DNA of 63,200 bases, the filler included, from Vannella sp. (taxonomy: Eukaryota): assembly GCA_023345925.1 (NCBI GenBank). It is 9 parts of 9 records of this genome, joined end to end, with 100 filler letters (N's around TTAATTAATTAA, not from the genome) between each part and the next. Parts side by side here need not be neighbours in the genome. Positions count along the whole stretch, not along the records: positions 37,760 to 47,856 come from JAJQQN010000165.1; 8 more parts are not named here. The stretch is one strand, 5' to 3'. The position numbers were made by a program, and so were the translations under genes. Position 1 is the stretch's first letter, and each line of letters begins with the position of its first letter. The notes below the pieces were generated by a model, which saw only the letters and a program-made list of their open reading frames with translations, searched no databases and was not told the DNA's origin. Of the stretch, positions 20,866-53,052 are shown piece by piece.

Positions 20866-22251
20866 AGCGATGTCGAAGTGAGTGCTTCCGACACGTTCGC
20901 ACAGCTTCACCTATCCGATCATACGATGGCTGGCTTGATTGGCTTGGGATTGTCTCGCCCGTCCCCAGTGCAGTCTCGAGCCATACCAATCGGTCTCTTT
21001 GGAGCTGATGTGTTAGTTCAGGCAAAGTCAGGGACTGGAAAGACTCTCGTGTTCTCCGTGATCGCTGCGGAGCAAGTCCAAAGGCACGTGAACGAACTCC
21101 AGGCCTTGATCATCGCTCCTACAAGAGAGATTGCTTTGCAGATTGAACAGGTTCTCTGTGACCTTACCAAGGCATTCATTCCTCCTATGCTTGTCTCATG
21201 CTTCATCGGTGGCCAAACGCTGGACGAGGTTGCGAGAAACCTCTCGAAAGGAGTGCACATTGCTGTTGGCACTCCAGGGAGAGTACTCAGCTTGATCGAG
21301 TCCTCTCAGCTCTCTTGTTCATCTCTGAATCTACTCGTTGTAGATGAAGCGGATAAAGTGCTCGATGGAGGAATGCTGAATCAGTTCAAGTCAGTTAGAC
21401 ACCTTTCCTTTGGGCCCCTTTGTAACCTTGCCTAGATCCATTTTCGCTGCTATTCCAAGTCGGTGTCAATGCTTGGCCCTTTCAGCAACCTTTACCCCTG
21501 AACGGAAGCAAATGATGTTGTCTTTCTTGAAGGACCCTCAAATGGTTCTTGTGTCCGCTGATACTCCTTCTCTTGAAGGAGTGAAGCAATATTACTCTAT
21601 TGCAGACGATGGAACTGTGCTGCCTTCTGCAGTGGCACAGCGCTATCACTTGTTCAAGCAAAAGACAAAACAGTTATTGAGATTGTTGACTTCCGTCCGA
21701 TTCCACCAGTGTTTAGTCTTCTGTAACCAGCGAGACTTAGCTCAAAAGCTTTGTAATACGTTGACCAAGCACGGATGGGCCAACAGATTCATCTCTGGTG
21801 GTCACGACCAAGCGGATAGACAGGAATCAATGGAAGCCTTACGATCCTTCCAATTACGAGTGCTGGTATCTACCGATTTAGTGAGCCATTCTGCCTCTCC
21901 TTCCATCCTCCTAGTATCTCACAAAAACAGACTTCTCGGGGAGTGGATGTGGAACGCGTCAATTTGGTGATGAATGTCGATCTTCCTAGAGACACTGAGA
22001 CTTACTTTCATCGTATTGGAAGGACAGGACGATTCGGGACTTACGGTGTTGCTGTATCCTTTGTGAGCAACACTGAATTAAGTCACCTTCGCCAGATTCA
22101 AAGTACTTACAAGACCACCATTTCCCAGCTCCCTGTCGTCATTCCTCCACATTTCTATGCGTATCAGATGGAAGAGGAACCAGCTCATGCCGCCCTATCA
22201 CCTCCAGAAGAGCTGCTAGAACCAGACTTGAAGCGACAAAGGCGAGAATGA
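20866..22251 (+). CDS. DDX20: DEAD-box RNA helicase, DDX20/Gemin3-like, 5' truncated
   Basis: PSPVQSRAIPIG, QAKSGTGKTLVF, PTREIA, GTPGR, DEAD, SAT, FHQCLVFCN, LRVLVSTDL, HRIGRTGRFGTYG. Confidence 0.85.
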
Positions 22252-37759: not shown

Positions 37760-37784
37760 TTCCCTCATTTCACCTGGATTGCCT

Positions 37785-38501
37785 TTATTGGGAAAGGTAG
37801 TTGATGAGGTTGGTGGTTCCAGTGAGGTATCCTTCGTCGCGTCCTCCATCAGTGATGTGATGAACATGGGCGAAATCAATCATCCGAACAACGGGGGCGG
37901 TGGTGTTAGCGGGCTCGGCGTCGTAGACAACGAGGATGGAGCTGCTGTAGACTCGGACGTGGTGCTGTCCTTCCATCATACGGTGAATCTTCTTGATTTC
38001 CTCAAGAACAGGAGGAAGGACTCGATCTCGAGTCTCTTTGCTGTTGAAGAAGGAGAAGAGGCACTCAGCAATAGTGTCCTTCGTCAGAGCCTTCCCGTAG
38101 GGCTTGTCGCGCTTGACTGCAGCAAGGCCATTCGACTCATCAAAGTACTTCATTCCAACTACGCGAATACCGAGGGTGGACGTTGTAGAACCGTCATCTT
38201 TCTTCTTCATGGACGCGGCTTTCTCAGGTGTTGCGCCCTCTCCAACAGACGAGGTCCCCATCTTGATATCCATCACACATGGCTTAGTCATTCCCTTGGT
38301 AAGATCCTCCATGATGACGAAGGTCTTGCCCTCCTCCACGATTGTGCCGTAACAAGCTGGGGCAAAGCCTGCCAAGAAGGCGTACTTGCTGTCGAGGTTC
38401 TTGTAGAACTCAAACTCCACCTCGCCTACCTTCTTCTGGATCTTGCCTTCCCCAGCCTCACAGAAACCGCCTTCGTGACCTCCTGCTTGGACGACTGGCA
38501 T
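37785..38501 (-). CDS. Inositol polyphosphate kinase (IPK/IPMK family)
   Basis: QAGGH, PCVMDIKMG (PxxxDxKxG), SSSILVVYD, MIDFAH. Confidence 0.93.
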   Translation of the reverse strand: MPVVQAGGHEGGFCEAGEGKIQKKVGEVEFEFYKNLDSKYAFLAGFAPACYGTIVEEGKTFVIMEDLTKGMTKPCVMDIKMGTSSVGEGATPEKAASMKKKDDGSTTSTLGIRVVGMKYFDESNGLAAVKRDKPYGKALTKDTIAECLFSFFNSKETRDRVLPPVLEEIKKIHRMMEGQHHVRVYSSSILVVYDAEPANTTAPVVRMIDFAHVHHITDGGRDEGYLTGTTNLINYLSQ

Positions 38502-38729
38502 CACCAACCGCGGAAAAGGAATGCCCTGCTTTGGTCCCTAAGCGGGATACCGTTCTCAGGCTTTTCCTCCATTCCGTTATCAATGCGAGGACCCGGCTCA
38601 ATGCCAAGTGAGTGGTCGGAGGAAAGGGCGGGAAAAGAGGGCGAGGGCTTTCTTCCTTTGTGGGTTTAGGAATGGGGGAGTGCGTCGTATTGACTATCAA
38701 TGAGATATGTACAGCAGGTAGGGAGGGGA

Positions 38730-41051
38730 CTAGGGAACGGTCGCCAGGGGAAGATCCTGCTTGAGGAATTTGATGTTGGCATCTGCACCGCTACTGGCAA
38801 TCAGATTCATTCGAGAATGACACGCCACACTCTGAATAGACTCGTCAAACTTCTTCCGATTCGCCTAGTCACTCGTCAGAATGGCCCCCAAACAACATAG
38901 CTGGAAGTCTCTTCTTACCATTAGCTCTTGGACACACGTGCGACTTCCAATGTTCCAGATTCTCAATGAGCAGTCTTGTCCTAACACAGGAGAGTAAGTT
39001 TCAAGACCGTAAGGACCAGGACCGGGCTTACCGCCTGAAACTAAATGATCCCCTGTGCGGTCGATTGCGAGGGAGGAGACCCCGTCAAGGTGTCCCACCA
39101 TAGAGTGAACTTGTTCGCAAGAACGGATATCAAAGAACTGAATGGAGCGGTCCTCGTGGGCTGTAAATGCCATTGGTTGGGCTGGATGTGCGACAATCTG
39201 GTTGATCTGAGAGTTCAGGTCCACACCAGAAGAGGAAGGCGTCTTCATGGTGTGGAGGATCTCGGATGTCTCGATATCTACAACGCTGATGGAGGAGTCG
39301 TTGTAGGCGACCAGTAATTGGGTGGAATCGGTGGCCAGGACCGTGAGGGAGGTCGGAATGTACTGGCTATCACCAGATGGATGCATAATCGTCTGCAAAC
39401 AAGGGTTTGACAGTCTCTTATGGTTCCAAATCTTCACTGTCCCGTCACTAGACGCTGAGAATAAGAGAGCTTCTCGATTGGGATGAACAGCCACGTCCCA
39501 AACGGCGTCCGTATGGCCGCTCATGGTACGGATTTGCTGGCTACTTGCTGAACCTACTCTATCGTAAGTTCCAACAGCCAGCGACACACGTATCCTGCTC
39601 ACCATAGCTCCCGAAGGGGTTCACAGAAAGTACATCTTGTGGCAGGCTCCACTTGATGATTTGAGTATCCAAACCTGCACTAAAGAACTCTGTTCCACTT
39701 GTGCTTATAGCACACTTGAGCACGGCCTTGGTGTGACCATAATACGTCTGGATCGGCTCAGCTTGAATCCTAAGAGAGATTAGAGCGCTCTAAACGTAGG
39801 TGGAGACGCTCACTTCTTCGAGTTGATGTTATTGACCTTCCAGAGCTTCAAAGTGCAGTCATCGCTGGCAGAGAGAAGAACGGGGTGCTGAGGATGGAAC
39901 TGGATGGAACGTATGCAATCGTAGTGCGCTCTGGTACCAAGGGTAAGCAAGCCAACGCTGTAAACTAGGTTCTGTAGCTCACCTTGAAGTAGAAACTTGC
40001 TTCCACGTGGAGTAGAGCTTAAAGTCACCCAATCGGTCTTCTAAGAACGAGTCGTTGTCCTCCAGCGCCTTTCCTAATGAAGAGAGGATCGATGTACCAT
40101 CATTCTTTGGTAGTGGTGCCGGGAGAGAGCTCTTCTTCCGAAGGACATCCGCATCATCGGCCGAGGGACTTCGAGCAGTGACTGCGGAAGAGAGAACCAC
40201 GGACTCTTTGCTTCTGCCGTGTGCTGAGGCCAAAGGTGCAGGTGGTGACTCATCCGCCCATTCGTCGTCATCCTCCAAAGGCGCTCCTAAAAGATCAAGG
40301 ATCGTGGAAGAGCTCGTCTTCGTGGGGGGAAGGACTCCTGAAGAGGTTAGCTCTGAGCGGTTGCGACGAGCGAGCTCTCCGGAGTCGTGTAAGTTGACCA
40401 TCAAGTCTTCTGGGCTTTCAACAGGGACGTCGGCAGGCAGAGGGACCGGAACCTGGTATTCGACAGTACTCGCTCTGGCCTGGTCTTGTGTGGCTGGAAC
40501 CAGCATCGTTGTAAGCTCTTGTGACATCTGATGGAGGGTGGCCATCAAACTATGCAACAAGGCGCCCTTGGTGAGCGGAAACGAGGTCTAATTCGCATGT
40601 TTGAAGCTTACTTGGCGACTGTGCCTCGTTGCTGGTCCTGTAAGTGAGCAAGAGAGTTTCCTACAACTTCAGGATGCGCTAAAGTGGCTGTAGGGTCGCG
40701 GAGCTTCCTGTTGAGGGGTCAGAACCAGAGGGATGAAGGTCCTGTGAGTCCGCACCGCTCTGTGCAGAGGATTTGTTCAAGCATAGCTATCCTCCGACTC
40801 TGGTGGGAGATGATAGCACTTTGATATTCGTTCTGCGTGTCCAAAGCAGCCACCTTGGCCTGAAAGGGTTGGCCCCAAAGTCAGGTCCCTCGACGCTTCC
40901 TTTCAGCCTCCCTCCTCACCTGCAAAGTCGTCCTCTCCAGTTCCCAAGCCTCCTGCCGCACCTCAAAGGCATAGCATTCACCCTCAATGACTGCTAAAGC
41001 CTCCCGAAGACTCACTGAAGGACGCCCGGCCAGCTGACCTCTCCCAGCCAT
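38730..41051 (-). CDS. Striatin-family WD40 protein, multi-exon
   Basis: N-terminal FEVRQEAWELERTTLQ and RRIAMLE coiled coil; WD40 SASDDCTLKLW, GHTDAVWD, TAHEDRSI, HRKKFDESI. Confidence 0.85.
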
Positions 41052-41098
41052 CAGCCTGCAAATGATAATGAAAAAGCCAAATTTTAGGTCCATAGGAG

Positions 41099-43264
41099 TC
41101 ATTTTGAACCAATTTGAACACGTCGGAGAGGGCGGCGACCTGTGATTGGTGGAGAGCCGCCGGAATTGGGAAGGTCTTTTCGGGACGTTGCGTTGGTGAG
41201 GAGGTTCAGGCGCCACTCAATGGTTCTTTGGGAGGGTGTAAAGATTCCTTTGCGCTCGGTGCAATGGAGATGGAGGGTGAAGAGACCTTGGGAGAGACTA
41301 TTTGGAGAGGAATTGTTCGCTTTGTACTCGATTTGGTTGCAAGTCAGCCGCTCTTCCTTCAGATGGCGTCGAAGGGAAGTCAAGAACTCGACTGTACGAG
41401 TTAATCGACAAGTAAAGTCCCAGAGAAGCCCGCTAATGTTGCCCAAACGGTTTTGGCGTTGCACGAGAAGACACTTGCTCATGATGAACTGAAGAATGTG
41501 CTCCTCCTTCTCACTCCAGGCGTCTCTCTGCAGTGGGAAAGACTCAGAATGTTCCAAGTTACTCTTGTAGAACATAGCAGACACAAGACCTTCCGAGGGA
41601 ACCGAGGAACTTCGATTGCAGACCAAAGAGAGTTCATAGCCTTGGCCAAAGCGGAGTATGAAGGAGTGGGACTTCTTGCTCCGCACGCTCTTGGCCAGTT
41701 TCCAAGGAATGAGCCCGTGCATGACATCCAGATCATCGGAAAGCTTCTCCAGTTGGTCCTGGACTTCTCTCTGCTTCCTGGCAGGAGAGGCGCGAGTGAC
41801 TTTCTCCAAAGGGCTGGGCGGGAGACTGCAACATCCCTCTGGTTTAGACAAGACAGTCTTCTCTAGACCCTTTGAGATGGTGTGGAGGGATCTAGCTAAG
41901 TCAATCAGATAGTTTTGGTGCTCCTTTTGCATTTCAGCTAATTGTGCGTTCCACTCAATCTTGGCTCTCATGACGGCTGCTCGTTGTATCATTTGAAGCT
42001 TACGCCGTACAGTGTACTCTTCTACTTCAAGAGAACTCCAGGTACTTCCAGTGTCAGTCTGGAGCTCGTTTCCCAGAGAGTGGATGGAAAGACACTTTGT
42101 GCGAAGTGACTTGGAGAGTCTCTGGCGCGTTTCTGAAGCGTTCTCAATCATTCTAGCTTTGAAGAAGAGCTGAGTAGTTGATAGTGAAGGATCACTGTCA
42201 ACACAGCGAGAGAGAAGAGTGGTCAAAGAGTCCGAAGGAAAACCGAGAGAAACCTTTCGGGAGGAGCGATTGAACAGATTGAATGACATCTGGGCACCTT
42301 CTAAGAACTCTTCAAAAGTATGCTCTTCCTTATAAGTAGAGGAAGAAGAGGAGGAAGACGGAGAACCAGCAGGAACTGAGCAGTCAGTAGGGGCCGGGGA
42401 AGAAGGTGCGTTATCCCAGGAGTTATCAGCAGACGGGGAGCGAGAGAAGCAAAGAATATCCCCAGTAGTCTCGAAGCATGAAAATGAATCCCCGTCGTCA
42501 TCAGAGGAAGAAGCGTTGGATGGAGAAGAGTCCATTTCCAAGGAGGAGGCGTCATTGATATCCTGTTGTTGATCAGCAGCAATGAGTTCTTGCAAAGTCA
42601 CTTGCGCAGTGATGTTGTGGATGCAGTGGTCGTTGTCCTGAGGAAAGAATCGAGTTTCCGAGGACTCCTGAGAAGGCGAAGCGGTGACTTCCTCCATCAC
42701 CTGACTTCCTTCCTCTACAGACACGTTCTCCCTTCTCCTCAAGGGTGAAGTCGCCACATCAAGGAAGATACGAGCCGTTGAGTCGTTGTCAGACGAGCCG
42801 GAAAGCCGACGACGCCGGAATTCCGGTTTTGGGGATTCCGGCGGATTGAGTTTCCACGCGTTGGCTGTGAAACTCATGTTGGAGCTGGAGGCAGAACCAA
42901 CAGAGGCTGCACTCTGCTCCAAAGTCTCTTCAGGGTGGAACTCACCTGAGTCAGAGGATGAAAAGCCAATGAAACGGGCTGTACGTCGTCTGCAAGGGGA
43001 CTCAGAAGGTGAGAGGAGGGGTGGGAAGATAGGAGAGGGCTCGTCGTTCAGGTGCTCTTCGATCTGAGGCAGAGGAAGCGGTGAAGCCGGAGCAGGAAGA
43101 GAACGTGCGTGAGCTCGACGATGGATCAGTTGTACACTCGTTCGAGAATGAAAGGACACTCGTCGTCGACGCTCCTGCACCGGCTTATATTCATCCTCGT
43201 CAAGAAGAGGCAACAAAGGCGAAAGGGAGCCTCTAAGGCAAGAGAAAGGCGCGTTTTCACTCAT
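41099..43264 (-). CDS. KNL1/Spc105/Spc7-like kinetochore scaffold, apparently single exon
   Basis: RRRRVSF PP1-docking motif, Ser/acidic disordered middle with MELT-like MEEVT, TFEEFLEGAQMSF Spc7-like motif, coiled coil, C-terminal globular region. Confidence 0.6.
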   Translation of the reverse strand: MSENAPFSCLRGSLSPLLPLLDEDEYKPVQERRRRVSFHSRTSVQLIHRRAHARSLPAPASPLPLPQIEEHLNDEPSPIFPPLLSPSESPCRRRTARFIGFSSSDSGEFHPEETLEQSAASVGSASSSNMSFTANAWKLNPPESPKPEFRRRRLSGSSDNDSTARIFLDVATSPLRRRENVSVEEGSQVMEEVTASPSQESSETRFFPQDNDHCIHNITAQVTLQELIAADQQQDINDASSLEMDSSPSNASSSDDDGDSFSCFETTGDILCFSRSPSADNSWDNAPSSPAPTDCSVPAGSPSSSSSSSTYKEEHTFEEFLEGAQMSFNLFNRSSRKVSLGFPSDSLTTLLSRCVDSDPSLSTTQLFFKARMIENASETRQRLSKSLRTKCLSIHSLGNELQTDTGSTWSSLEVEEYTVRRKLQMIQRAAVMRAKIEWNAQLAEMQKEHQNYLIDLARSLHTISKGLEKTVLSKPEGCCSLPPSPLEKVTRASPARKQREVQDQLEKLSDDLDVMHGLIPWKLAKSVRSKKSHSFILRFGQGYELSLVCNRSSSVPSEGLVSAMFYKSNLEHSESFPLQRDAWSEKEEHILQFIMSKCLLVQRQNRLGNISGLLWDFTCRLTRTVEFLTSLRRHLKEERLTCNQIEYKANNSSPNSLSQGLFTLHLHCTERKGIFTPSQRTIEWRLNLLTNATSRKDLPNSGGSPPITGRRPLRRVQIGSK

Positions 43265-43427
43265 AGAGAAGTACGTAGAGGTGGAGCAGGTCAAAGGAGA
43301 ATGAAAGAAGCCCTCAGAACCCCTGCTTTATACACCAGCGCCCAGAAAGGGCGGCAAGAGCAGCTTCACTTCTCCAAAGGAACCGCCGGAATCCCAACGG
43401 CCTCCCCGCTTCTCCCTTGCAGCCAGC

Positions 43428-46400
43428 ATGAAAGTGAAGAGGTTTGTTGATGCAGAGGAATCGTTTGAAAGCGCTAAATCATTGTTTGGCAGGTCGTGGG
43501 GGATGGCGGAGGGGTTTTTGCCCTTCTTTCTCCGGGAAAGGTGCGGTTTGGAGGAAGCTGACGTTGCTAGATACACTCCACTGTTGCAGGAGCATCGTAT
43601 AACGAGCGCGGAGGTCCCCGACTTGACGCATGAGCTTCTGAAGGAGATGGGAATCGTCGCTGTGGGCCACCGTCTTCGTATCTTACGGGGAGCGAGAGAG
43701 CGAGGTGTAAATCTCTTGAATAACGAGCGACGGGAGAGTCCTGCGAGTCCCCCTCCAAGCATCAAAGAAGCGCCCACAGTACTGCCACCTCCCGTTGTCT
43801 CTTTCTCTCCTCCAGAGAGGCCTCTTGCCAGGAAAAGCACTCCCGTAGAGACAACCAGAGAAGCGAAACAGGATAACTCGCTTTGGAGCTTCGAAGTGGA
43901 GGAGGAGGAGGACCTCAGCGGAGAAGAGGATGACGAAATCGTTCTTTCTGGGCCTAAAGGTGTCAAGGATGCTCCCCAGCCCGAGTTTGAGAGTTTCGCA
44001 CGCTATAATCCACTTGTAATCAACAGGCCCAACTGCAAGATCCCGCCCCCGTTCTCTCAGCTCCCTCAAACGCTTCAGTTTACCGCCAACTTGCGCAAGT
44101 ACCTCGAAACCATGTTCCTTACCTGCCAAGTGCCTCCACGCTCTCACCAGATCCATGCTCTTGAGCTTCTCATCACCGATCTCTTGACGAAGGAGCAAAA
44201 ACGTCATCAGAGCGATCACCAGGCCAAAGCGCACGAGGTAGAGCCACTGAACTACTTGATGCAGCATTCAATTGGTAGTGGGAAGAGCCTTATCATAGCT
44301 GCATTGACCTACCTCCTCTCTACCATCACCCAACTGGAAGAGCCGATCTTCGACATTGTCATTGTCTTGAACGATCGCAAGCAGCTTGATATGCAGCTAT
44401 GGGGCACTGTTTCTAGTTTCCTGTCCACTCACGGGATCCGCCTTGATCACTCAAGCAAGCCCGCTACTTCAGAGGAATTGAGAAACATTCTTGTAGGACT
44501 GGGAGCTGATGATGCGCCCCGGGGGAAGGCCGTCATTCTCTTCTCTACACTGCAGAAGTTCGTGAGGATCAACTCACTTGAGAGCCCTGAGGCTGTGCGT
44601 TATGCCACGACCAGGAAACATCGGATTGCTGTAATTGCTGACGAAGCGCATCGTTCTCATGGGCACAGAGGCTCGCGGTTGCTTCATGACTTTTTGACTG
44701 GCAGCTCTCGCCAAGACCACGACATCACTTACTTTAGCTTTACTAGCACTCCAACTGCACAGGCGTTAGAGATGTTTGGCAGTGCGCGAACGGGGGATAG
44801 TAAGGAGCCCTTCCATTGCTATCCTATTCGCAGTGCAGTGAATGATGGGCACATCTGCAACCCGCTCCTTAACTACATCACAGTGCGAACTAGTGCAACG
44901 ATAACCGAGAATTTATCAGATTCCTCCAACGACCGGGAGAAAGTCCATCGGACTAGAGCTGTCCAGCATCTTACACGGGTGACGGCATCTAGCTACGAAC
45001 TATTGCGTTCTCGGGCTGTTTACGTGGTCAAACACTTTGTTGGCGAAATCTTGGGAAAATGCCAAACGCCAGAGTTTTTTCCGAAGGCAATGTTGGTTGC
45101 TGGCTCTCGCCTGAGCATTCTCCGTTATCGTGAGCTCTTGGAAAAGGAGATTTTGAATCTGCCTGAAGCCAAGAGGTTTGAAGTGGTCTGCGCATTTACT
45201 CCTTTTCTTCACTTGGGGAAGACCTATCATGAGGAAGAAGTCAATTCTCGGTACGGGTCGAACTTTCTTTGTGAGTTTCAGTCTCCAACCAGCCCTGTGA
45301 AGATGATCATTGTCCACTCAAAGCTCCTCATTGGGTTTGATGAGCCCATGCTCCATACCATGTACATTGACCGAGCGTTACGTGGTACATCTTTGGTCCA
45401 AGCTCTTGGCCGCATCTGTCGTACTGCACCAGGAAAGAAGACAACCTGCGTTGTTGACTTTGTCAATCCCCGGAAGGTCGTTGCCCGAGTCTTTGGGCTG
45501 TACTGGAAGAAGACCACTGTCGCCGTTTTTGAGAAATACGACTCTGACAAAGAGAAGTTCTCGCGTGCTGTAGAGAAGCTCAGACTGTATTCCTGCTTCA
45601 TGAACAAGAAAGACCCTGAATTTTGCTTCTCCTACTTTAAGAAAGAGAGTCTCTTTAGTCCTCAGGTCATGAATGATGTGACTCGATTGTGCAAGACTTA
45701 CTTGCGGATCTCTGATATCATCCAAGAGGAGAGCCCAGCAGTGAACACGACCAAAATAAGAGGCTTTTTGCAGCTCGTATCATCTGAGAACAATGTCAAA
45801 GATTCCATGATTGTAAGGAGAGCAGAACAGACAATGAAAGTTCATAGCGCGAGCCTTACTGAGGTGGATTCCGGTCCAATTGTGCCTGCTACTTGCCTCC
45901 GCCTGAAATCAACACCTCGTAAAGTGAGCACAAGAGACTCTGAAGCACCTTCTGCAGTGTCTTCCTCCGATCTCATAGCCGTTGCCAATGAGAGGTTCCA
46001 AATCACGCAAAGCCGCCTTTCCTCGAACGAGCCCTTTTCCCGAGAAACCCCCTTTATCGAACAGCCTGAAGGAATCTCTGCTGGCACTATGGAGTTTGCC
46101 AAGACTCTCCTCCGGCGCAGTGGTGAGAAGAGAGAGATGGAGCAAGCCAAGAGAGAGAACCAACCGATCGATTTGGAGAGGGAAGATGTCATTGAAATTC
46201 ATGACGCGGTTCCAGATCCAGATCCTCCAACAAAAGCGACTGGATTCAGACCTCCTCTCAAACTTGTTCCTAGAGTTGTTGAAATAACGAAGGCCTTGCA
46301 GATGATACAATCTACTGATGCTACAGAAGTTTGTGAAGGGCTCCACTTGATTCAGAAGCATGTGGAGTTTGCTGACAACAAGGTTGCCTTGCAAGGGAAC

Positions 46401-47453
46401 GACCTCATCCAAAAGCTCATCACATTGATCCGCACAACTCCCAGAGAACCTCAAACAGAGGGGCAACTTGCTAGTTGTCTTGACATTCTCACGTTGTTCT
46501 GCGACTGCACGAATGATATTAACGCTACAATCAAGTTTGGTTTGCTCTTTCAATTGAATGGGCTCTTGCTACCCTTTGCAGGAGCTCCATTGGTCATCTC
46601 AGGATGTCAATTGCTCCTTAAAATTGCTGATATTGGCAAAGAGGACTGCGTAGCAAAGATCTCAAACACAGATATCATCCCAAGTCTATCACAATACTTA
46701 CTACGAGACTCTCTACCCAAAGAGGCTTTGAAAGTGATTCTCAAACTGTTGAATTCCTTCGGGAGCAACACGTTCTGCCTTCAAAAGATGGAGGCAAATA
46801 ACACTATTCAGCGTTTGCTTGATCTTGTCATCAAAGAAGAGGAGGATATATCTATCTGTCAAGTGGGCTGCGATTCTCTTCGCAAATTTGCGCAAAGCAA
46901 TCAGACCATCCGGAATAAGCTTAAATCAGCTCAGCAGTGGCGTGACCACTTTGGGCGTGTAATTCATACATGCCAGCAGAACTCACTGAAACGAGATATT
47001 TTGACTCGTTTTGTTGAATTCATTTGGGGACGGAAGCGTTTGCGCCCTCCGCCGGCTCATGCTCCTAATCCAAGGAAGAAGGCTAAATACGCAACTCCCA
47101 ACACTACTCCAACAATGACAGTGAGCCACTCCATTTCCTATCAAGGTGCTCATGGAGGAACTGGCCGATTGAGACCACCTGTTCATCTGCCTGTCTATCC
47201 ACCCAATCAGCCCTCTTTCCATCCTTCGAACCCCGTTACCTATTCTCCATCTCCAGCAACGATAGTGAACCAATCCATCTCCTATCAAAGTTCTCCTACA
47301 GGAACTGCCCGATTGAGAGCACCTGCCCACCCACCCAAGAGCCAGCCCCCTTCCAAACCCTCGAATCCGCCTTCATCTCCTCCGTCTGAGTTTTTTGATT
47401 ACCCCAATTCTGCTCGAGTCGGTGCTAATCAAAGAAGATTCTCTCCCATTTGA
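43428..47453 (+). CDS. SAM domain + Type I restriction HsdR-like SF2 helicase/translocase + ARM-like helical region, 1341 aa, apparently intronless
   Basis: SAM: YTPLLQEHRIT..LTHELLKEMGIVAVGHRLRIL. HsdR-type: PRSHQ, YLMQHSIGSGKS, VIVLNDRKQLDMQL, STLQKF, IADEAH, YFSFTSTP, KLLIGFDEPMLHTMYIDR, VQALGRICR..PGK..VVDFVN. Confidence 0.85.
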   Translation: MKVKRFVDAEESFESAKSLFGRSWGMAEGFLPFFLRERCGLEEADVARYTPLLQEHRITSAEVPDLTHELLKEMGIVAVGHRLRILRGARERGVNLLNNERRESPASPPPSIKEAPTVLPPPVVSFSPPERPLARKSTPVETTREAKQDNSLWSFEVEEEEDLSGEEDDEIVLSGPKGVKDAPQPEFESFARYNPLVINRPNCKIPPPFSQLPQTLQFTANLRKYLETMFLTCQVPPRSHQIHALELLITDLLTKEQKRHQSDHQAKAHEVEPLNYLMQHSIGSGKSLIIAALTYLLSTITQLEEPIFDIVIVLNDRKQLDMQLWGTVSSFLSTHGIRLDHSSKPATSEELRNILVGLGADDAPRGKAVILFSTLQKFVRINSLESPEAVRYATTRKHRIAVIADEAHRSHGHRGSRLLHDFLTGSSRQDHDITYFSFTSTPTAQALEMFGSARTGDSKEPFHCYPIRSAVNDGHICNPLLNYITVRTSATITENLSDSSNDREKVHRTRAVQHLTRVTASSYELLRSRAVYVVKHFVGEILGKCQTPEFFPKAMLVAGSRLSILRYRELLEKEILNLPEAKRFEVVCAFTPFLHLGKTYHEEEVNSRYGSNFLCEFQSPTSPVKMIIVHSKLLIGFDEPMLHTMYIDRALRGTSLVQALGRICRTAPGKKTTCVVDFVNPRKVVARVFGLYWKKTTVAVFEKYDSDKEKFSRAVEKLRLYSCFMNKKDPEFCFSYFKKESLFSPQVMNDVTRLCKTYLRISDIIQEESPAVNTTKIRGFLQLVSSENNVKDSMIVRRAEQTMKVHSASLTEVDSGPIVPATCLRLKSTPRKVSTRDSEAPSAVSSSDLIAVANERFQITQSRLSSNEPFSRETPFIEQPEGISAGTMEFAKTLLRRSGEKREMEQAKRENQPIDLEREDVIEIHDAVPDPDPPTKATGFRPPLKLVPRVVEITKALQMIQSTDATEVCEGLHLIQKHVEFADNKVALQGNDLIQKLITLIRTTPREPQTEGQLASCLDILTLFCDCTNDINATIKFGLLFQLNGLLLPFAGAPLVISGCQLLLKIADIGKEDCVAKISNTDIIPSLSQYLLRDSLPKEALKVILKLLNSFGSNTFCLQKMEANNTIQRLLDLVIKEEEDISICQVGCDSLRKFAQSNQTIRNKLKSAQQWRDHFGRVIHTCQQNSLKRDILTRFVEFIWGRKRLRPPPAHAPNPRKKAKYATPNTTPTMTVSHSISYQGAHGGTGRLRPPVHLPVYPPNQPSFHPSNPVTYSPSPATIVNQSISYQSSPTGTARLRAPAHPPKSQPPSKPSNPPSSPPSEFFDYPNSARVGANQRRFSPI

Positions 47454-47856
47454 GTTGCTCTCTCTCTCTCTTCCTCCTTCCTTCATTCTTGCCACTCACG
47501 GGTAAATCCAACATAAACCCGCCTGGTCTCCACAAGGCCGCCCCAGTTGACCAAAGCAGTTTTCTCCTTTTCAAAAGGCAAAGCCAGGCATCAAAAGGAA
47601 ACCTTCGGGATGATCTGCTGACTGTACAACACGGCATAGGCCCTGTTGCCGGACTAGTTGTCGCCCAACGCCCTTCTTCGGCCTCTGCCGAGATGAAGTT
47701 GCGGTCGTCAGCCGCATTAAGGAGTGGAGGGAAGCCTTTCACTGGTTGGGGAGGAGAATTCGCAGGTCTACTGCTGTGTCTCATCCTCCGCGAGTCCAAA
47801 CAACTCTCTATTATGATATCAGCCTTATTGCAGGCATCTGTTGTCCGTATGTCGTA

Positions 47857-47956: not shown

Positions 47957-48512
47957 GCGGTCGTGGAGCAGGTCCACGAGGAGCACTTCCAAAGACTCCT
48001 GTGGAAGCCAAAGAAGCCGTCCAACATCCGCAGCTCTCTCGCAACCAAAAACAGGGAACAAACGCTATCCCTTCATCTCCACTCACCTCACAGAAACCAA
48101 AATCAACCGAAACGTTGCCAATCGTGAATATTCCGGTCAAGAGTGAGAAACCAATTGGAGTGGTATCCGATAGAGTGATAGAAAGTGTACTGCCACCCTC
48201 TAGTCTCCCTTCTCCTCCAGTTACCGAGGCTCCTCAAGACACCAAGAGCCCAACAAGCCGTATGTTATCCGAAAGCTTCAACTCGTGAAGAACTAACAGC
48301 CATCAGATATCAAAGAATGGAGTGTCGAAGAAGTGGCCCGCTGGATTGGCGAGATTGGGTTCGGCAATGTCGCTCATCTCTTCCAGGAGAATTGTATCTC
48401 CGGTGCTGAGTTGGTGGATCTGACTAACGATGAGCTTAAAAGTGATCTCGGCATTACAGCATTGGGTGCCCGCAAAGCCATTCTTCGCCTCGCCCAACAA
48501 CTCAACACTTAA
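47957..48512 (+). CDS. C-terminal SAM-domain protein, 5' truncated, intron ~48260-48299
   Basis: Last exon reads EWSVEEVARWIGEIGF..LFQENCISGAELVDLTNDELKSDLGITALGARKAIL. Confidence 0.85.
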
Positions 48513-51617: not shown

Positions 51618-53052
51618 ATGCTCTTGAGGACGAGGAGGGGAATGGGAAAGTTCTACGCTGTTCGTTCTGGGAAGCGTCCGGGGATCTATAGAGAGTGGTA
51701 AGAGAGAGCTGTAGGGACACTGTGTCTTGGGCTGAAGCGAGGTGAAAGGGGGCAGTGCCAGGACCAAGTCCATGGCGTGCCGGAGGCGCAGTACCAGTCG
51801 TTCGCCACTCTTGCTCAAGCCACGGAGTGGATGAAAGATGTTCAACACGCTAATCAGGGCCACATTCAACCTCGCCGTTCTATCTCCACCGCTTCCTTCG
51901 CCCAGAAGGAGAACATCGCATTTTTGCCCGTCTACACGGACGGGAGCGCTCTAGGCAACCGGCGAGGAGGAACTGAAAGCCGTGCTGGATGTGGCGTTTA
52001 CTTTGGACCCGGAGACATCCGAAATCGGGCCGCTCGCCTGCCAGGAGAGATCCAAACGAACCAAAGAGCGGAGATCTTCGTTAGTTCCTCCCACGTGGAC
52101 TTCCTCTGCATCCTAACGCCTCTCCAAGGCGGCCATTATGGCCATAGAGAGTGCGGGCCTCGATCAGCCTCTGGAAGTGCGCACAGATAGCCAATATGTC
52201 ATCAATGGCAAGTCACTTTTCTTTTCTTCCCCGGATTAGCGCTGATTCGATGGACAGCAATGACAGACTGGGTATTCACTTGGAGACAAACGAGAGAGGG
52301 GTACAACCACGTGCAGAACGGCGATCTCTTCATGCGATTGGAGGATCTGTGCTCTCGTTCAGCGACTAGGCCTCGATTTGTAAGCAGTTTAGGGCACTCT
52401 CTGCTATCTTATTCTGATGACGTGTAAGGTCTATGTGCCAGCTCACTCAGGAGTGGCAGGGAATGAAGCTGCCGATGATCTGGCCAAGAGAGGTGCTGAG
52501 CTTCCTCCCAGTCCTCTCCCAACCCCAGAGTTGAACGCTGGAGATGGAAGCCAATCTAGAGAGTTTGGAGATGTATTCTATATGGTTCAGGTCAGCCCCG
52601 CTAAGAACTCAACAGAGAAAACCACAACGGGAGTTTGTTTTTTGCATGAGCCATTGACAGATGGAGAAATGATCAATTTAGCTTTCAAACGCCGGCTCTC
52701 TACTACCACGTTTGCTTTGGAGACGCGTGAAGGGGCGGAGCAAGTTTTTCAGACTCGCTGCTTTACTGTGATAGAAGAGATTCCCCAGTCCATTGTGGGT
52801 GTGTTCGCTATGGCTTGGGCAGCTTTCCAATCTTCAAGAGCGCAAACTCTTGGATCTATCACTGTCTTAGCCCGAGGGAATCTGACCTTAAGATGCCGCC
52901 TTTCGGGAGATTCCAATTCCTCAATCACAATATCTGCCGATTCACTCCCCAAGGCCAACCTTCTACTTGGCCCTCTTTCCCCATTCCAAACAGAGACTGA
53001 ATTCGAGTACACTGCTCATGTGCGCCTCCACACCCAAATGAACTCCGAGTAA
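51618..53052 (+). CDS. RNASEH1: Ribonuclease H1 (hybrid-binding + RNase H domains) with long C-terminal extension, 4 introns
   Basis: KFYAVRSGKRPGIY, YQSFATLAQA, VYTDGSALGN, QTNQRAE, TDSQYVIN, VPAHSGVAGNEAADDLAKRGA. Confidence 0.92.

Follow-up and report, generated by a model that had tools for sequence, protein, structure and literature searches.

The gene described here lies within a window of 63,200 nucleotides of Vannella sp. DNA (the whole stretch that was analysed, filler included), composed of nine pieces with artificial N44-12mer-N44 linkers at the joins. The contig that carries it shows the following features:

37760..47856, genuine contig of 10.1 kb, flanked by two artificial linkers
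37785-38537, minus strand, IPK gene
38865-~41000, minus strand, spliced striatin-like gene
41099..43264, minus strand, divergent neighbour of 721 aa, starting 163 bp from the motor gene, KNL1-like by eye only
43428..47453, plus strand, SAM / HsdR-type motor / ARM protein gene, 1341 aa, single exon (uninterrupted ORF, translation)
43497..43703, plus strand, SAM domain, aa ~24-92 (Pfam SAM_2, PDB SAM matches, public contig X2)
43704..44027, plus strand, Pro/Ser/Glu-rich linker, aa 93-200, occupying the HsdR nuclease position, nuclease motifs absent
44073..45527, plus strand, HsdR-type SF2 motor with two RecA folds, aa ~216-700 (Pfam, TIGR00348, PADLOC, model, Foldseek, motifs)
45330..45332, plus strand, Ile635 in motif V (LIGFDEP); Thr in 42/42 other eukaryotic rows
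45528..46010, plus strand, HsdR helical domain and subsequent strand/helix, aa ~701-860 (model, alignment with bacterial sister family)
46254..47027, plus strand, predicted ARM-repeat solenoid, aa 943-1200 (structure prediction)
47028..47087, plus strand, two basic clusters, bipartite-NLS-like, aa 1202-1220 (sequence)
47088..47450, plus strand, tail rich in Pro/Ser, containing a pair of imperfect ~21-aa repeats (sequence)

The original prediction of one uninterrupted frame of about 4 kb, on a contig that also carries a spliced striatin-like gene, agrees with what we observed: the frame is open throughout and no intron is required for the 1341 aa product. Of eight population variants inside the gene, six are synonymous. 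The KNL1 identity proposed for the head-to-head neighbour was not confirmed, as its 721 aa found no match in Pfam or the PDB. All that can be discerned in this neighbour is an RRRVSF motif and a coiled-coil-like stretch, and nothing ties it to the motor system. The claim that HsdM and HsdS are absent from the contig applies to a 10-kb piece on which none was seen; across the window, none of 77 further long frames matched PADLOC models for type I methyltransferase or specificity subunits.

A bacterial contaminant or a chimera was ruled out by tree placement, codon usage and joining public contigs, as expected from the first reading of the locus. The Vannella motor protein clusters with named amoebozoans (support 99/99). 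GC3 of the gene (0.52) and its codon-usage correlation (0.67) fall in the ranges of eight eukaryotic window genes (0.50-0.65 and 0.42-0.80, respectively), most of which sit on pieces other than the motor gene's contig. In public contig X2 (43588-44234) the second half of the SAM domain is continuous with the motor start, and in X1 (46128-46511) the linker is continuous with the ARM region, this support coming from a single study (three runs), which may itself be the source of this DNA. No RNA data set was listed as carrying the locus, which weighs neither way on expression. None of the public pieces listed spans 43434-43440, hence adjacency to the upstream gene is without independent support.

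The central part of the protein is a motor of the HsdR type, as predicted. It is covered by Pfam ResIII (aa 236-442), SWI2_SNF2 (aa 277-499) and a T1R_D3-like match (aa 609-678), by PADLOC REase_I (E 4e-26) and by TIGR00348 hsdR (aa 277-696, E 2.9e-43), the latter with 148.4 bits, below the curated cut-off of 284.55. Sequence matches beyond its own eukaryotic family are all bacterial or archaeal HsdR. With an AlphaFold model of aa 190-870 (pLDDT 86.2, pTM 0.87), the best Foldseek matches were all EcoR124I HsdR (E 6e-17), RadD and Rad54 coming next (Rad54 5e-11; Sub2 3e-10). With nearest sequences and fold both from HsdR, an ordinary eukaryotic DEAH/DEAD RNA helicase or a Snf2 remodeller was excluded. 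Helices at 514-613 and a strand at 614-627 are present in the model; the Vannella protein has nothing that corresponds to the final ~85-100 residues of bacterial HsdR.

VIA comparison with HsdR gave Z 17.9 (rmsd 3.9, 426 aligned), with RadD (Z 17.2) and FANCM (Z 16.9) tied within 1 Z, and a fold match to Mfd at Z 16.7. The ties with RadD and FANCM could be taken to indicate a general DNA repair or chromatin motor working apart from Pol II, like RadD, FANCM, Rad54 or Irc3, in which fused modules would merely target active chromatin. According to passages of a review, ATPases derived from restriction-modification systems had earlier become chromatin remodellers such as SWI2/SNF2 and MORC (PMC3417536), a precedent for this scheme. 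However, structural ties between SF2 motors are generic, and the full three-domain TFIIS-like module found across several algal lineages (see below) is difficult to account for unless a polymerase is bound, so that we hold such a role to be unlikely.

The motor residues comprise Q241, Walker A K286, DEAH at 405-408, motif III FTSTP and motif VI Q658/R662/R665. The motif series is thus of HsdR type as first described, except that motif V differs, reading LIGFDEP with Ile635 in place of the family Thr; Cys664 in motif VI is a further departure. These changes in motifs V-VI, together with an end branch of 0.82 (second longest of the amoebozoan rows) and the existence of a degenerate member, Mastigamoeba P0200, without DEAH and Walker A consensus, might reflect a drifted Vannella sub-lineage: its ATPase may be weak or inactive and serve as a scaffold, or the motor may now act on RNA in splicing or RNP remodelling (cf. 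SURP and WW domains of relatives). We give this little credence, as K286, D405, E406, H408, Q658, R662 and R665 are all intact, population variants in the motor part are synonymous in 3/3 cases, and Ile635 is common to the closest metagenomic relatives P0132, P0285 and P0286 (57-59% identity), indicating a stable trait. Judged from its sequence, the Vannella gene product is a nuclease-less HsdR-type motor with its catalytic motifs kept.

Absence of the N-terminal PD-(D/E)xK nuclease was borne out. HSDR_N gave no Pfam match in the 1341-aa protein, while it scored in the bacterial control P0013, no PD-(D/E)xK or QxxxY pattern was found in aa 92-275, and the region is a low-complexity linker. Accordingly, the profile of the bacterial sister family (985 positions) was matched only from position ~270-296 onward, up to 780, with alignment beyond. 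The SAM domain is supported by Pfam SAM_2 (aa 41-90, E 2.7e-9, above cut-off) and by SHANK3 and tankyrase among PDB SAM matches; a complex prediction of its self-association (score 0.01) weighed neither way. The proposal that SAM had replaced the nuclease was not sustained: HSDR_N is missing from 52/52 eukaryotic sequences in Pfam scans and SAM exceeds the cut-off in only three of them, so most nuclease-less members have no SAM.

The predicted helical ARM/HEAT-like region after the motor was recovered as an ARM solenoid in a single-sequence fold of aa 943-1200 (pLDDT 64). The model matched CNOT9 with Z 18.9 (rmsd 3.7, 247 aligned), many other ARM proteins being nearly as close; it resembles ARM proteins generally and could bind anything. 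No Pfam match was obtained for this region, and its sequence homology to the ARM regions of relatives was undetected (rank 7 of 202 real, shuffled or reversed sequences). Basic NLS-like clusters occur in 20/21 family members examined, plus one weak, by a loose pattern of a commonplace kind.

Relatives of the motor were found in many amoebae, green algae, a cryptophyte, water moulds (oomycetes) and unnamed protists, and no prior description of the family was found in the literature, in line with the original remark that this architecture was not recognised as described. Such database labels as 'type I restriction endonuclease subunit R' mask the family and invite its removal as bacterial contamination. 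Two branches are distinguished, Amoebozoa on one side and chlorophytes, cryptophytes, oomycetes and unnamed protists on the other. Members of the first, including the Vannella gene, carry ARM with SAM or SURP (SURP in four amoebozoan members), and those of the second either a full C-terminal TFIIS-like module or an N-terminal WW domain, the latter in oomycete members. TFIIS_M and Med26 scored over or near cut-off in eight algal-branch proteins (P0122, P0012, P0032, P0283, P0392, P0164, P0175 and P0202) and were further seen in P0281 and at loci L003, L005, L006 and L009. The algal module is complete, with N bundle, central domain and zinc ribbon, and aa 856-1119 of P0122 align with human TFIIS 22-299 (E 6.6e-10). 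The ESM Atlas also holds an all-eukaryote cluster of 53 members, 81% with Med26.

In all trees the eukaryotic family formed one clade, with UFBoot/SH support of 100/98, and SH of 99 in a 193-row tree (21 redundant or partial rows excluded), 96 in a 65-row tree (three distant bacterial rows without motif match left out), 97 in a quick C20 tree and 98 in a further tree. Its sister is a true bacterial HsdR subfamily with HSDR_N and neighbouring HsdM (5/5 loci). Bacteria with a similar DEAHRSH word were rejected as close kin, the trees placing them in a distant subfamily. A giant-virus vector was also discarded within a limited search: of 158 viral loci, 80 were retained, none of which showed the eukaryotic motif II context; they read as ordinary HsdR, with HsdM in 5/5 tested. 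Subgroups within the eukaryotic clade match host groups and some relatives carry spliceosomal introns; we therefore take the gene to be old and domesticated in eukaryotes. The idea of a horizontally acquired bacterial defence motor thus survives as regards derivation from HsdR, but not as a lone or recent acquisition by Vannella, which falls in an amoebozoan clade. In AU tests, the grouping of either branch with the bacterial sister family was not rejected (p 0.396 and 0.479), and the small number of diagnostic columns divide between amo+dia (3-4) and amo+near (2-4), which makes two separate transfers, each with a different job, possible.

WW and SURP modules are characteristic of proteins that bind the Pol II CTD and of splicing factors. 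The fusion of TFIIS, WW and SURP to the motor points to a role in Pol II elongation or RNA processing, and we propose, with about an even chance of being right, that the family is a nuclear dsDNA translocase in which the HsdM/S loader has been swapped for Pol II-side docking modules, in the manner of Mfd and CSB. Retention of the family in reduced parasites (Entamoeba, Peronospora) accords with this reading. Published work describes EcoR124I HsdR as following intact dsDNA 3'-5' without unwinding; its recruitment and activation by a DNA-bound partner, the MTase, is reported in PMC2291450 and PMC5248579. An old bacterial transfer would have left such a motor in need of a new anchor, which the TFIIS-like module may provide by docking it on Pol II. 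Pulling DNA, the motor could then push on or clear a stalled or backtracked polymerase, an action known from Mfd and CSB. In amoebae, the ARM solenoid would act as adaptor replacing TFIIS, and SAM would be an extra module through which the protein self-associates or binds partners. In the Vannella protein, TFIIS, WW and SURP are all absent, and its presumed link to Pol II is carried over from the sister branch. As nuclease mutations slow EcoR124I translocation, according to parts of PMC2602864, a nuclease-less motor may also behave differently.

The zinc ribbon deserves separate attention. Its Asp-Glu (ADEP) tip is present in 0/8 proteins and 0/3 loci with a readable ribbon, and the ribbon would act by gripping or modulating the polymerase, not by promoting cleavage. 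Archaeal TFS4, a tip-altered TFIIS paralogue, is virus-induced and inhibits RNAP, as reported in passages of PMC5715097. By this precedent, the family might instead be an antiviral or anti-foreign-DNA factor, whose motor scans dsDNA and signals via SAM oligomers, or whose cleavage-dead ribbon jams a host or giant-virus Pol II-like polymerase. Origin in a defence system, as retained by the HsdM-bearing sister loci, and a SAM-ARM combination reminiscent of SARM1 (ARM match at rank 21) are compatible with this, and fast divergence (30-42% identity), shuffled domains and a patchy range would also fit defence genes. Yet the tips vary among lineages and have no TFS4 lysine cluster, Pfam scans of 52 eukaryotic sequences found no effector domain such as TIR, nuclease, death-like or kinase, SAM is in the minority, and subgroups track host phylogeny. 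Searches showed no expansion, with one match per named species and two in Tieghemostelium. The innate-immunity sensor first suggested is therefore possible and not favoured, and we consider an antiviral function rather improbable; if true, it would represent a TFS4-like defence with an attached motor.

Returning to the Pol II-docked translocase, a tentative and somewhat doubtful extension would be a single capture at or near the last eukaryotic common ancestor (LECA), before the Amoebozoa/algal-stramenopile split, giving a TFIIS-fused Pol II translocase later lost in animals, fungi and land plants. If so, an ancient elongation motor with a cleavage-dead TFIIS grip is missing from model organisms, and a single, old origin would inform reconstructions of the genes that early eukaryotes possessed. 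The motor-TFIIS fusion is a hint that algae, oomycetes and amoebae may deal with stalled Pol II in a way not yet known, and the host groups include laboratory models (Chlamydomonas relatives, dictyostelids) besides reduced parasites.

Among known systems, HsdR (EcoR124I, TIGR00348) gives the best sequence and structure matches, sharing the motif series, two RecA folds and helical domain. In contrast to it, the Vannella protein has neither nuclease nor extreme C-terminus, scores below the family cut-off, has no HsdM/HsdS in the window and adds eukaryotic SAM, ARM and NLS-like parts, while relatives have introns. SARM1, with the architecture ARM-SAM-SAM-TIR, also joins SAM and ARM on one chain, whereas the Vannella protein has the reverse order, one SAM, no TIR and a motor in the centre. 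Mfd and CSB/Rad26 are RNA-polymerase-associated dsDNA translocases; by analogy, the proposed mode likewise couples an SF2 dsDNA translocase to a polymerase-docking module, from another SF2 family and with docking predicted via the TFIIS-like module or ARM solenoid. Compared with TFIIS (TCEA1/Dst1) and TFS4, algal members have all three TFIIS domains, but fused to a motor and devoid of the Asp-Glu tip in 11/11 ribbons, and the Vannella protein has no such module. Yeast Irc3 (PMC4245962) is also a eukaryotic SF2 dsDNA-dependent ATPase without nuclease; it is mitochondrial with a targeting peptide, is absent from the family search matches and is set apart by description. Finally, SWI2/SNF2 and MORC are similarly described, in passages of a review on R-M-derived ATPases whose main text does not contain 'HsdR' (PMC3417536), as restriction-system motors domesticated for nuclear tasks, while the present family was recruited separately, its source being type I HsdR. 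Type I HsdR would thereby join the few restriction-system machines domesticated for eukaryotic nuclear work, the likely route being that the nuclease was dropped and the loader swapped.

The uninterrupted 4-kb reading frame predicted at 43428-47453 (+) was borne out, its 4026 bases encoding 1341 residues without a stop. Pfam matched SAM (aa 41-90; claimed originally at about 30-90), ResIII, SWI2_SNF2 and T1R_D3-like domains, and found no HSDR_N, the HsdR nuclease domain, which had likewise been invisible at the N-terminus. The HsdR-type motor, already flagged by automatic database labels, was recognised by NCBIfam hsdR (aa 277-696, E 2.9e-43, below the model cut-off), by PADLOC, whose top six models were all type I restriction enzymes, and by a PDB sequence search returning EcoR124I HsdR first and SAM domains next. 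Foldseek with a confident structure model of aa 190-870 (78-row alignment, pLDDT 86.2, pTM 0.87) gave EcoR124I HsdR as its top ten matches. VIA aligned 426 residues of this model with HsdR (Z 17.9, rmsd 3.9), RadD and FANCM lying within 1 Z. The predicted helical ARM/HEAT-like region appeared as an ARM solenoid in a single-sequence model of aa 943-1214 (pLDDT 64); its fold matches, CNOT9 (Z 18.9) and beta-catenin (18.1) among them, were generic and singled out no partner. The tail (47088-47450, +) holds two imperfect copies of a unit of about 21 residues, built around Ser-Ile-Ser-Tyr-Gln and closing in Arg-Leu-Arg-x-Pro.

The motor keeps the full set of catalytic residues. Residue 635 is Ile, common to three close metagenomic fragments, versus Thr in 42/42 other eukaryotic rows. 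Three DNA runs of one study, possibly the assembly's source data, tile the gene at a depth of about 2-6, and single contigs from them link SAM-motor and linker-ARM. Among the runs listed for the gene, none was of RNA. Six of eight variants inside the frame were synonymous, versus 23% of all possible single changes (p about 0.003 by hand calculation, transition bias disregarded; at such low depth, differences could also be errors).

The window consists of nine joined contigs, cut by eight N44-12mer-N44 linkers, so gene order across linkers is meaningless.

Features of the window
7041, 12341, 20766, 25012, 29938, 37660, 47857, 60849: artificial linkers, 44 N + 12-base word (stops in all frames) + 44 N
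37760-47856: contig bearing the gene; inositol polyphosphate kinase, spliced striatin-like gene (as originally noted), 721-aa ORF, SAM-HsdR gene
41099-43264 (-): 721-aa ORF; N-terminal RRRVSF (PP1-docking-like) motif, C-terminal helical/beta region

The KNL1-like label given to this head-to-head neighbour was not confirmed: the 721-aa ORF had no database match, KNL1/Spc7 likeness being by eye only. It may extend beyond an intron. HsdM and HsdS, reported missing from the contig, matched 0/77 long frames of the window. Just past the linker, 48297-48512 (+) is the last exon of another gene, with a terminal SAM domain (Pfam E 1e-14). The ORF at 52417-53052 (+) matches RNase H at aa 6-27 and PhzC-PhzF at aa 71-140, both weakly and below cut-off; it probably either combines exons from two separate genes or reflects a fusion. 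On a different piece, 21380-22248 (+) holds exons of a further SF2 helicase-like gene with weak DpdF/Cas3 matches.

Motor searches placed eukaryotic proteins on top (24-42% identity) and bacterial HsdR after. Members came from amoebozoans (Balamuthia, Thecamoeba, Echinamoeba, Pyxidicula, four dictyostelid genera, Entamoeba, Mastigamoeba, Mastigella, Pelomyxa), green algae (Chlamydomonas incerta, Chlamydomonas schloesseri, Pleodorina, Cymbomonas), Hanusia and oomycetes (Phytophthora, Peronospora, Globisporangium). Animals, fungi and land plants contributed no named member among the roughly 8000 candidates scored per word-index search or the 150 listed of 3674 library matches. P0135, recorded under Schistocerca gregaria, groups with Pyxidicula (95/93) among the amoebozoans and is likely an amoebal contaminant of the locust assembly. 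In L013, a relative rich in introns, 9/9 motor breaks checked carry GT-AG pairs, and there is a partial SAM-like upstream exon (E 0.003, three-sequence profile; Pfam E 0.1, sub-cut-off). Mastigamoeba balamuthi P0200, with degenerate Walker A and DEAH, is likely a pseudo-ATPase; its gene model, joined to an unrelated Cys-rich membrane-protein-like N-terminus, is possibly an artefactual fusion. Dictyostelids have two paralogues (P0003/P0130 versus P0145/P0006/P0009/P0134/P0138/P0142), SURP and ARM being detected in one and neither in the other.

Eukaryotic rows were monophyletic in 5/5 trees.

Support for the eukaryotic clade
193-row tree: 45 eukaryotic rows, SH 99
65-row tree: 32 eukaryotic rows, 96; under C20, 97; careful LG+G4, 100/98 (UFBoot/SH)
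58-row tree, helical domain added: 30 eukaryotic rows, 98

The clade is sister to, without nesting inside, one bacterial HsdR subfamily that keeps the nuclease and adjoins HsdM in 5/5 records. The clade splits in two. In the amoebozoan branch, supported at 99/99, sequences from dictyostelids, from Archamoebae and from Entamoeba each cluster, and the window's protein lies near Balamuthia and Thecamoeba (84/96); the algal/oomycete branch has 100/97. By eye, both branches share a start of the bacterial profile match at position ~270, loss of its positions 433-455 in several rows, the same terminal helix, and a helical-domain Cys versus bacterial Tyr, all counting in favour of a single origin. Against it count AU tests, in which trees placing one or the other branch with the bacterial sister group were not rejected (p 0.396 and 0.479), and the few, split diagnostic columns for deep arrangements. 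On balance, the family probably arose once.

HSDR_N was found by Pfam in 0/52 eukaryotic sequences (some partial or isoforms; bacterial control positive), while SAM exceeded cut-off in only three (the window's protein, Echinamoeba, P0146), contrary to the proposal that SAM replaced the nuclease. Elsewhere, four amoebozoan members carry SURP, Balamuthia an ARM-type match above cut-off (three others weak), and oomycete members WW. Read from this census, nuclease loss is family-wide and SAM is one among several later add-ons. The TFIIS N bundle and central domain occur in nine proteins and four loci, all of the algal branch; for the Cymbomonas protein, the alignment with human TFIIS covers the three domains of the latter. 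Queried with the Entamoeba homologue, ESM Atlas gave as its top result a eukaryote cluster of 53 members, 81% of them with Med26 (score 0.91). The zinc ribbon keeps its four cysteines, with the ADEP tip in 0/11 read and Glu-Arg at the Asp-Glu position in chlorophytes; TFIIS cleavage depends on two acidic tip residues (PMC5715097). In P0164, P0281, L005 and L006 the tip is a highly conserved, quite different loop, hydrophobic with one Asp, which suggests a lineage-specific role at the polymerase secondary channel.

TFIIS binds Pol II. In the algal branch, the TFIIS-like module would anchor the motor there, and such a polymerase-anchored translocase would push or clear stalled Pol II, a reading to which we give about even chances and which now leads over the immune role. 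Eukaryotic members retain motor and helical domain, the eukaryotic module sitting at the position of the bacterial C-terminus. EcoR124I HsdR travels on intact dsDNA, recruited by DNA-bound MTase (PMC2291450), has negligible ATPase without MTase, and requires its helical domain for ATPase and translocation (PMC5248579). A Pol II role of the window's protein would be extrapolated from relatives, with a putative ARM adaptor in place of TFIIS. Of the other readings, an antiviral role, be it the sensor of the original prediction or a TFS4-like polymerase jammer, and a repair or chromatin motor are each unlikely, to the same degree; a drifted or RNA-directed copy is less likely again.

The finding is real, and the family, wider and older than first supposed and with transcription ahead of immunity as leading role, is apparently undescribed: no description appeared in the library of open-access papers searched, nor any mention in passages from PMC3417536, 10.1101/2022.12.12.520048, PMC2898643, PMC10030836 and PMC4245962. 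Because it lacks the nuclease and scores below the hsdR cut-off, the window's protein stands outside the type I restriction family; it is predicted to work like the HsdR motor.
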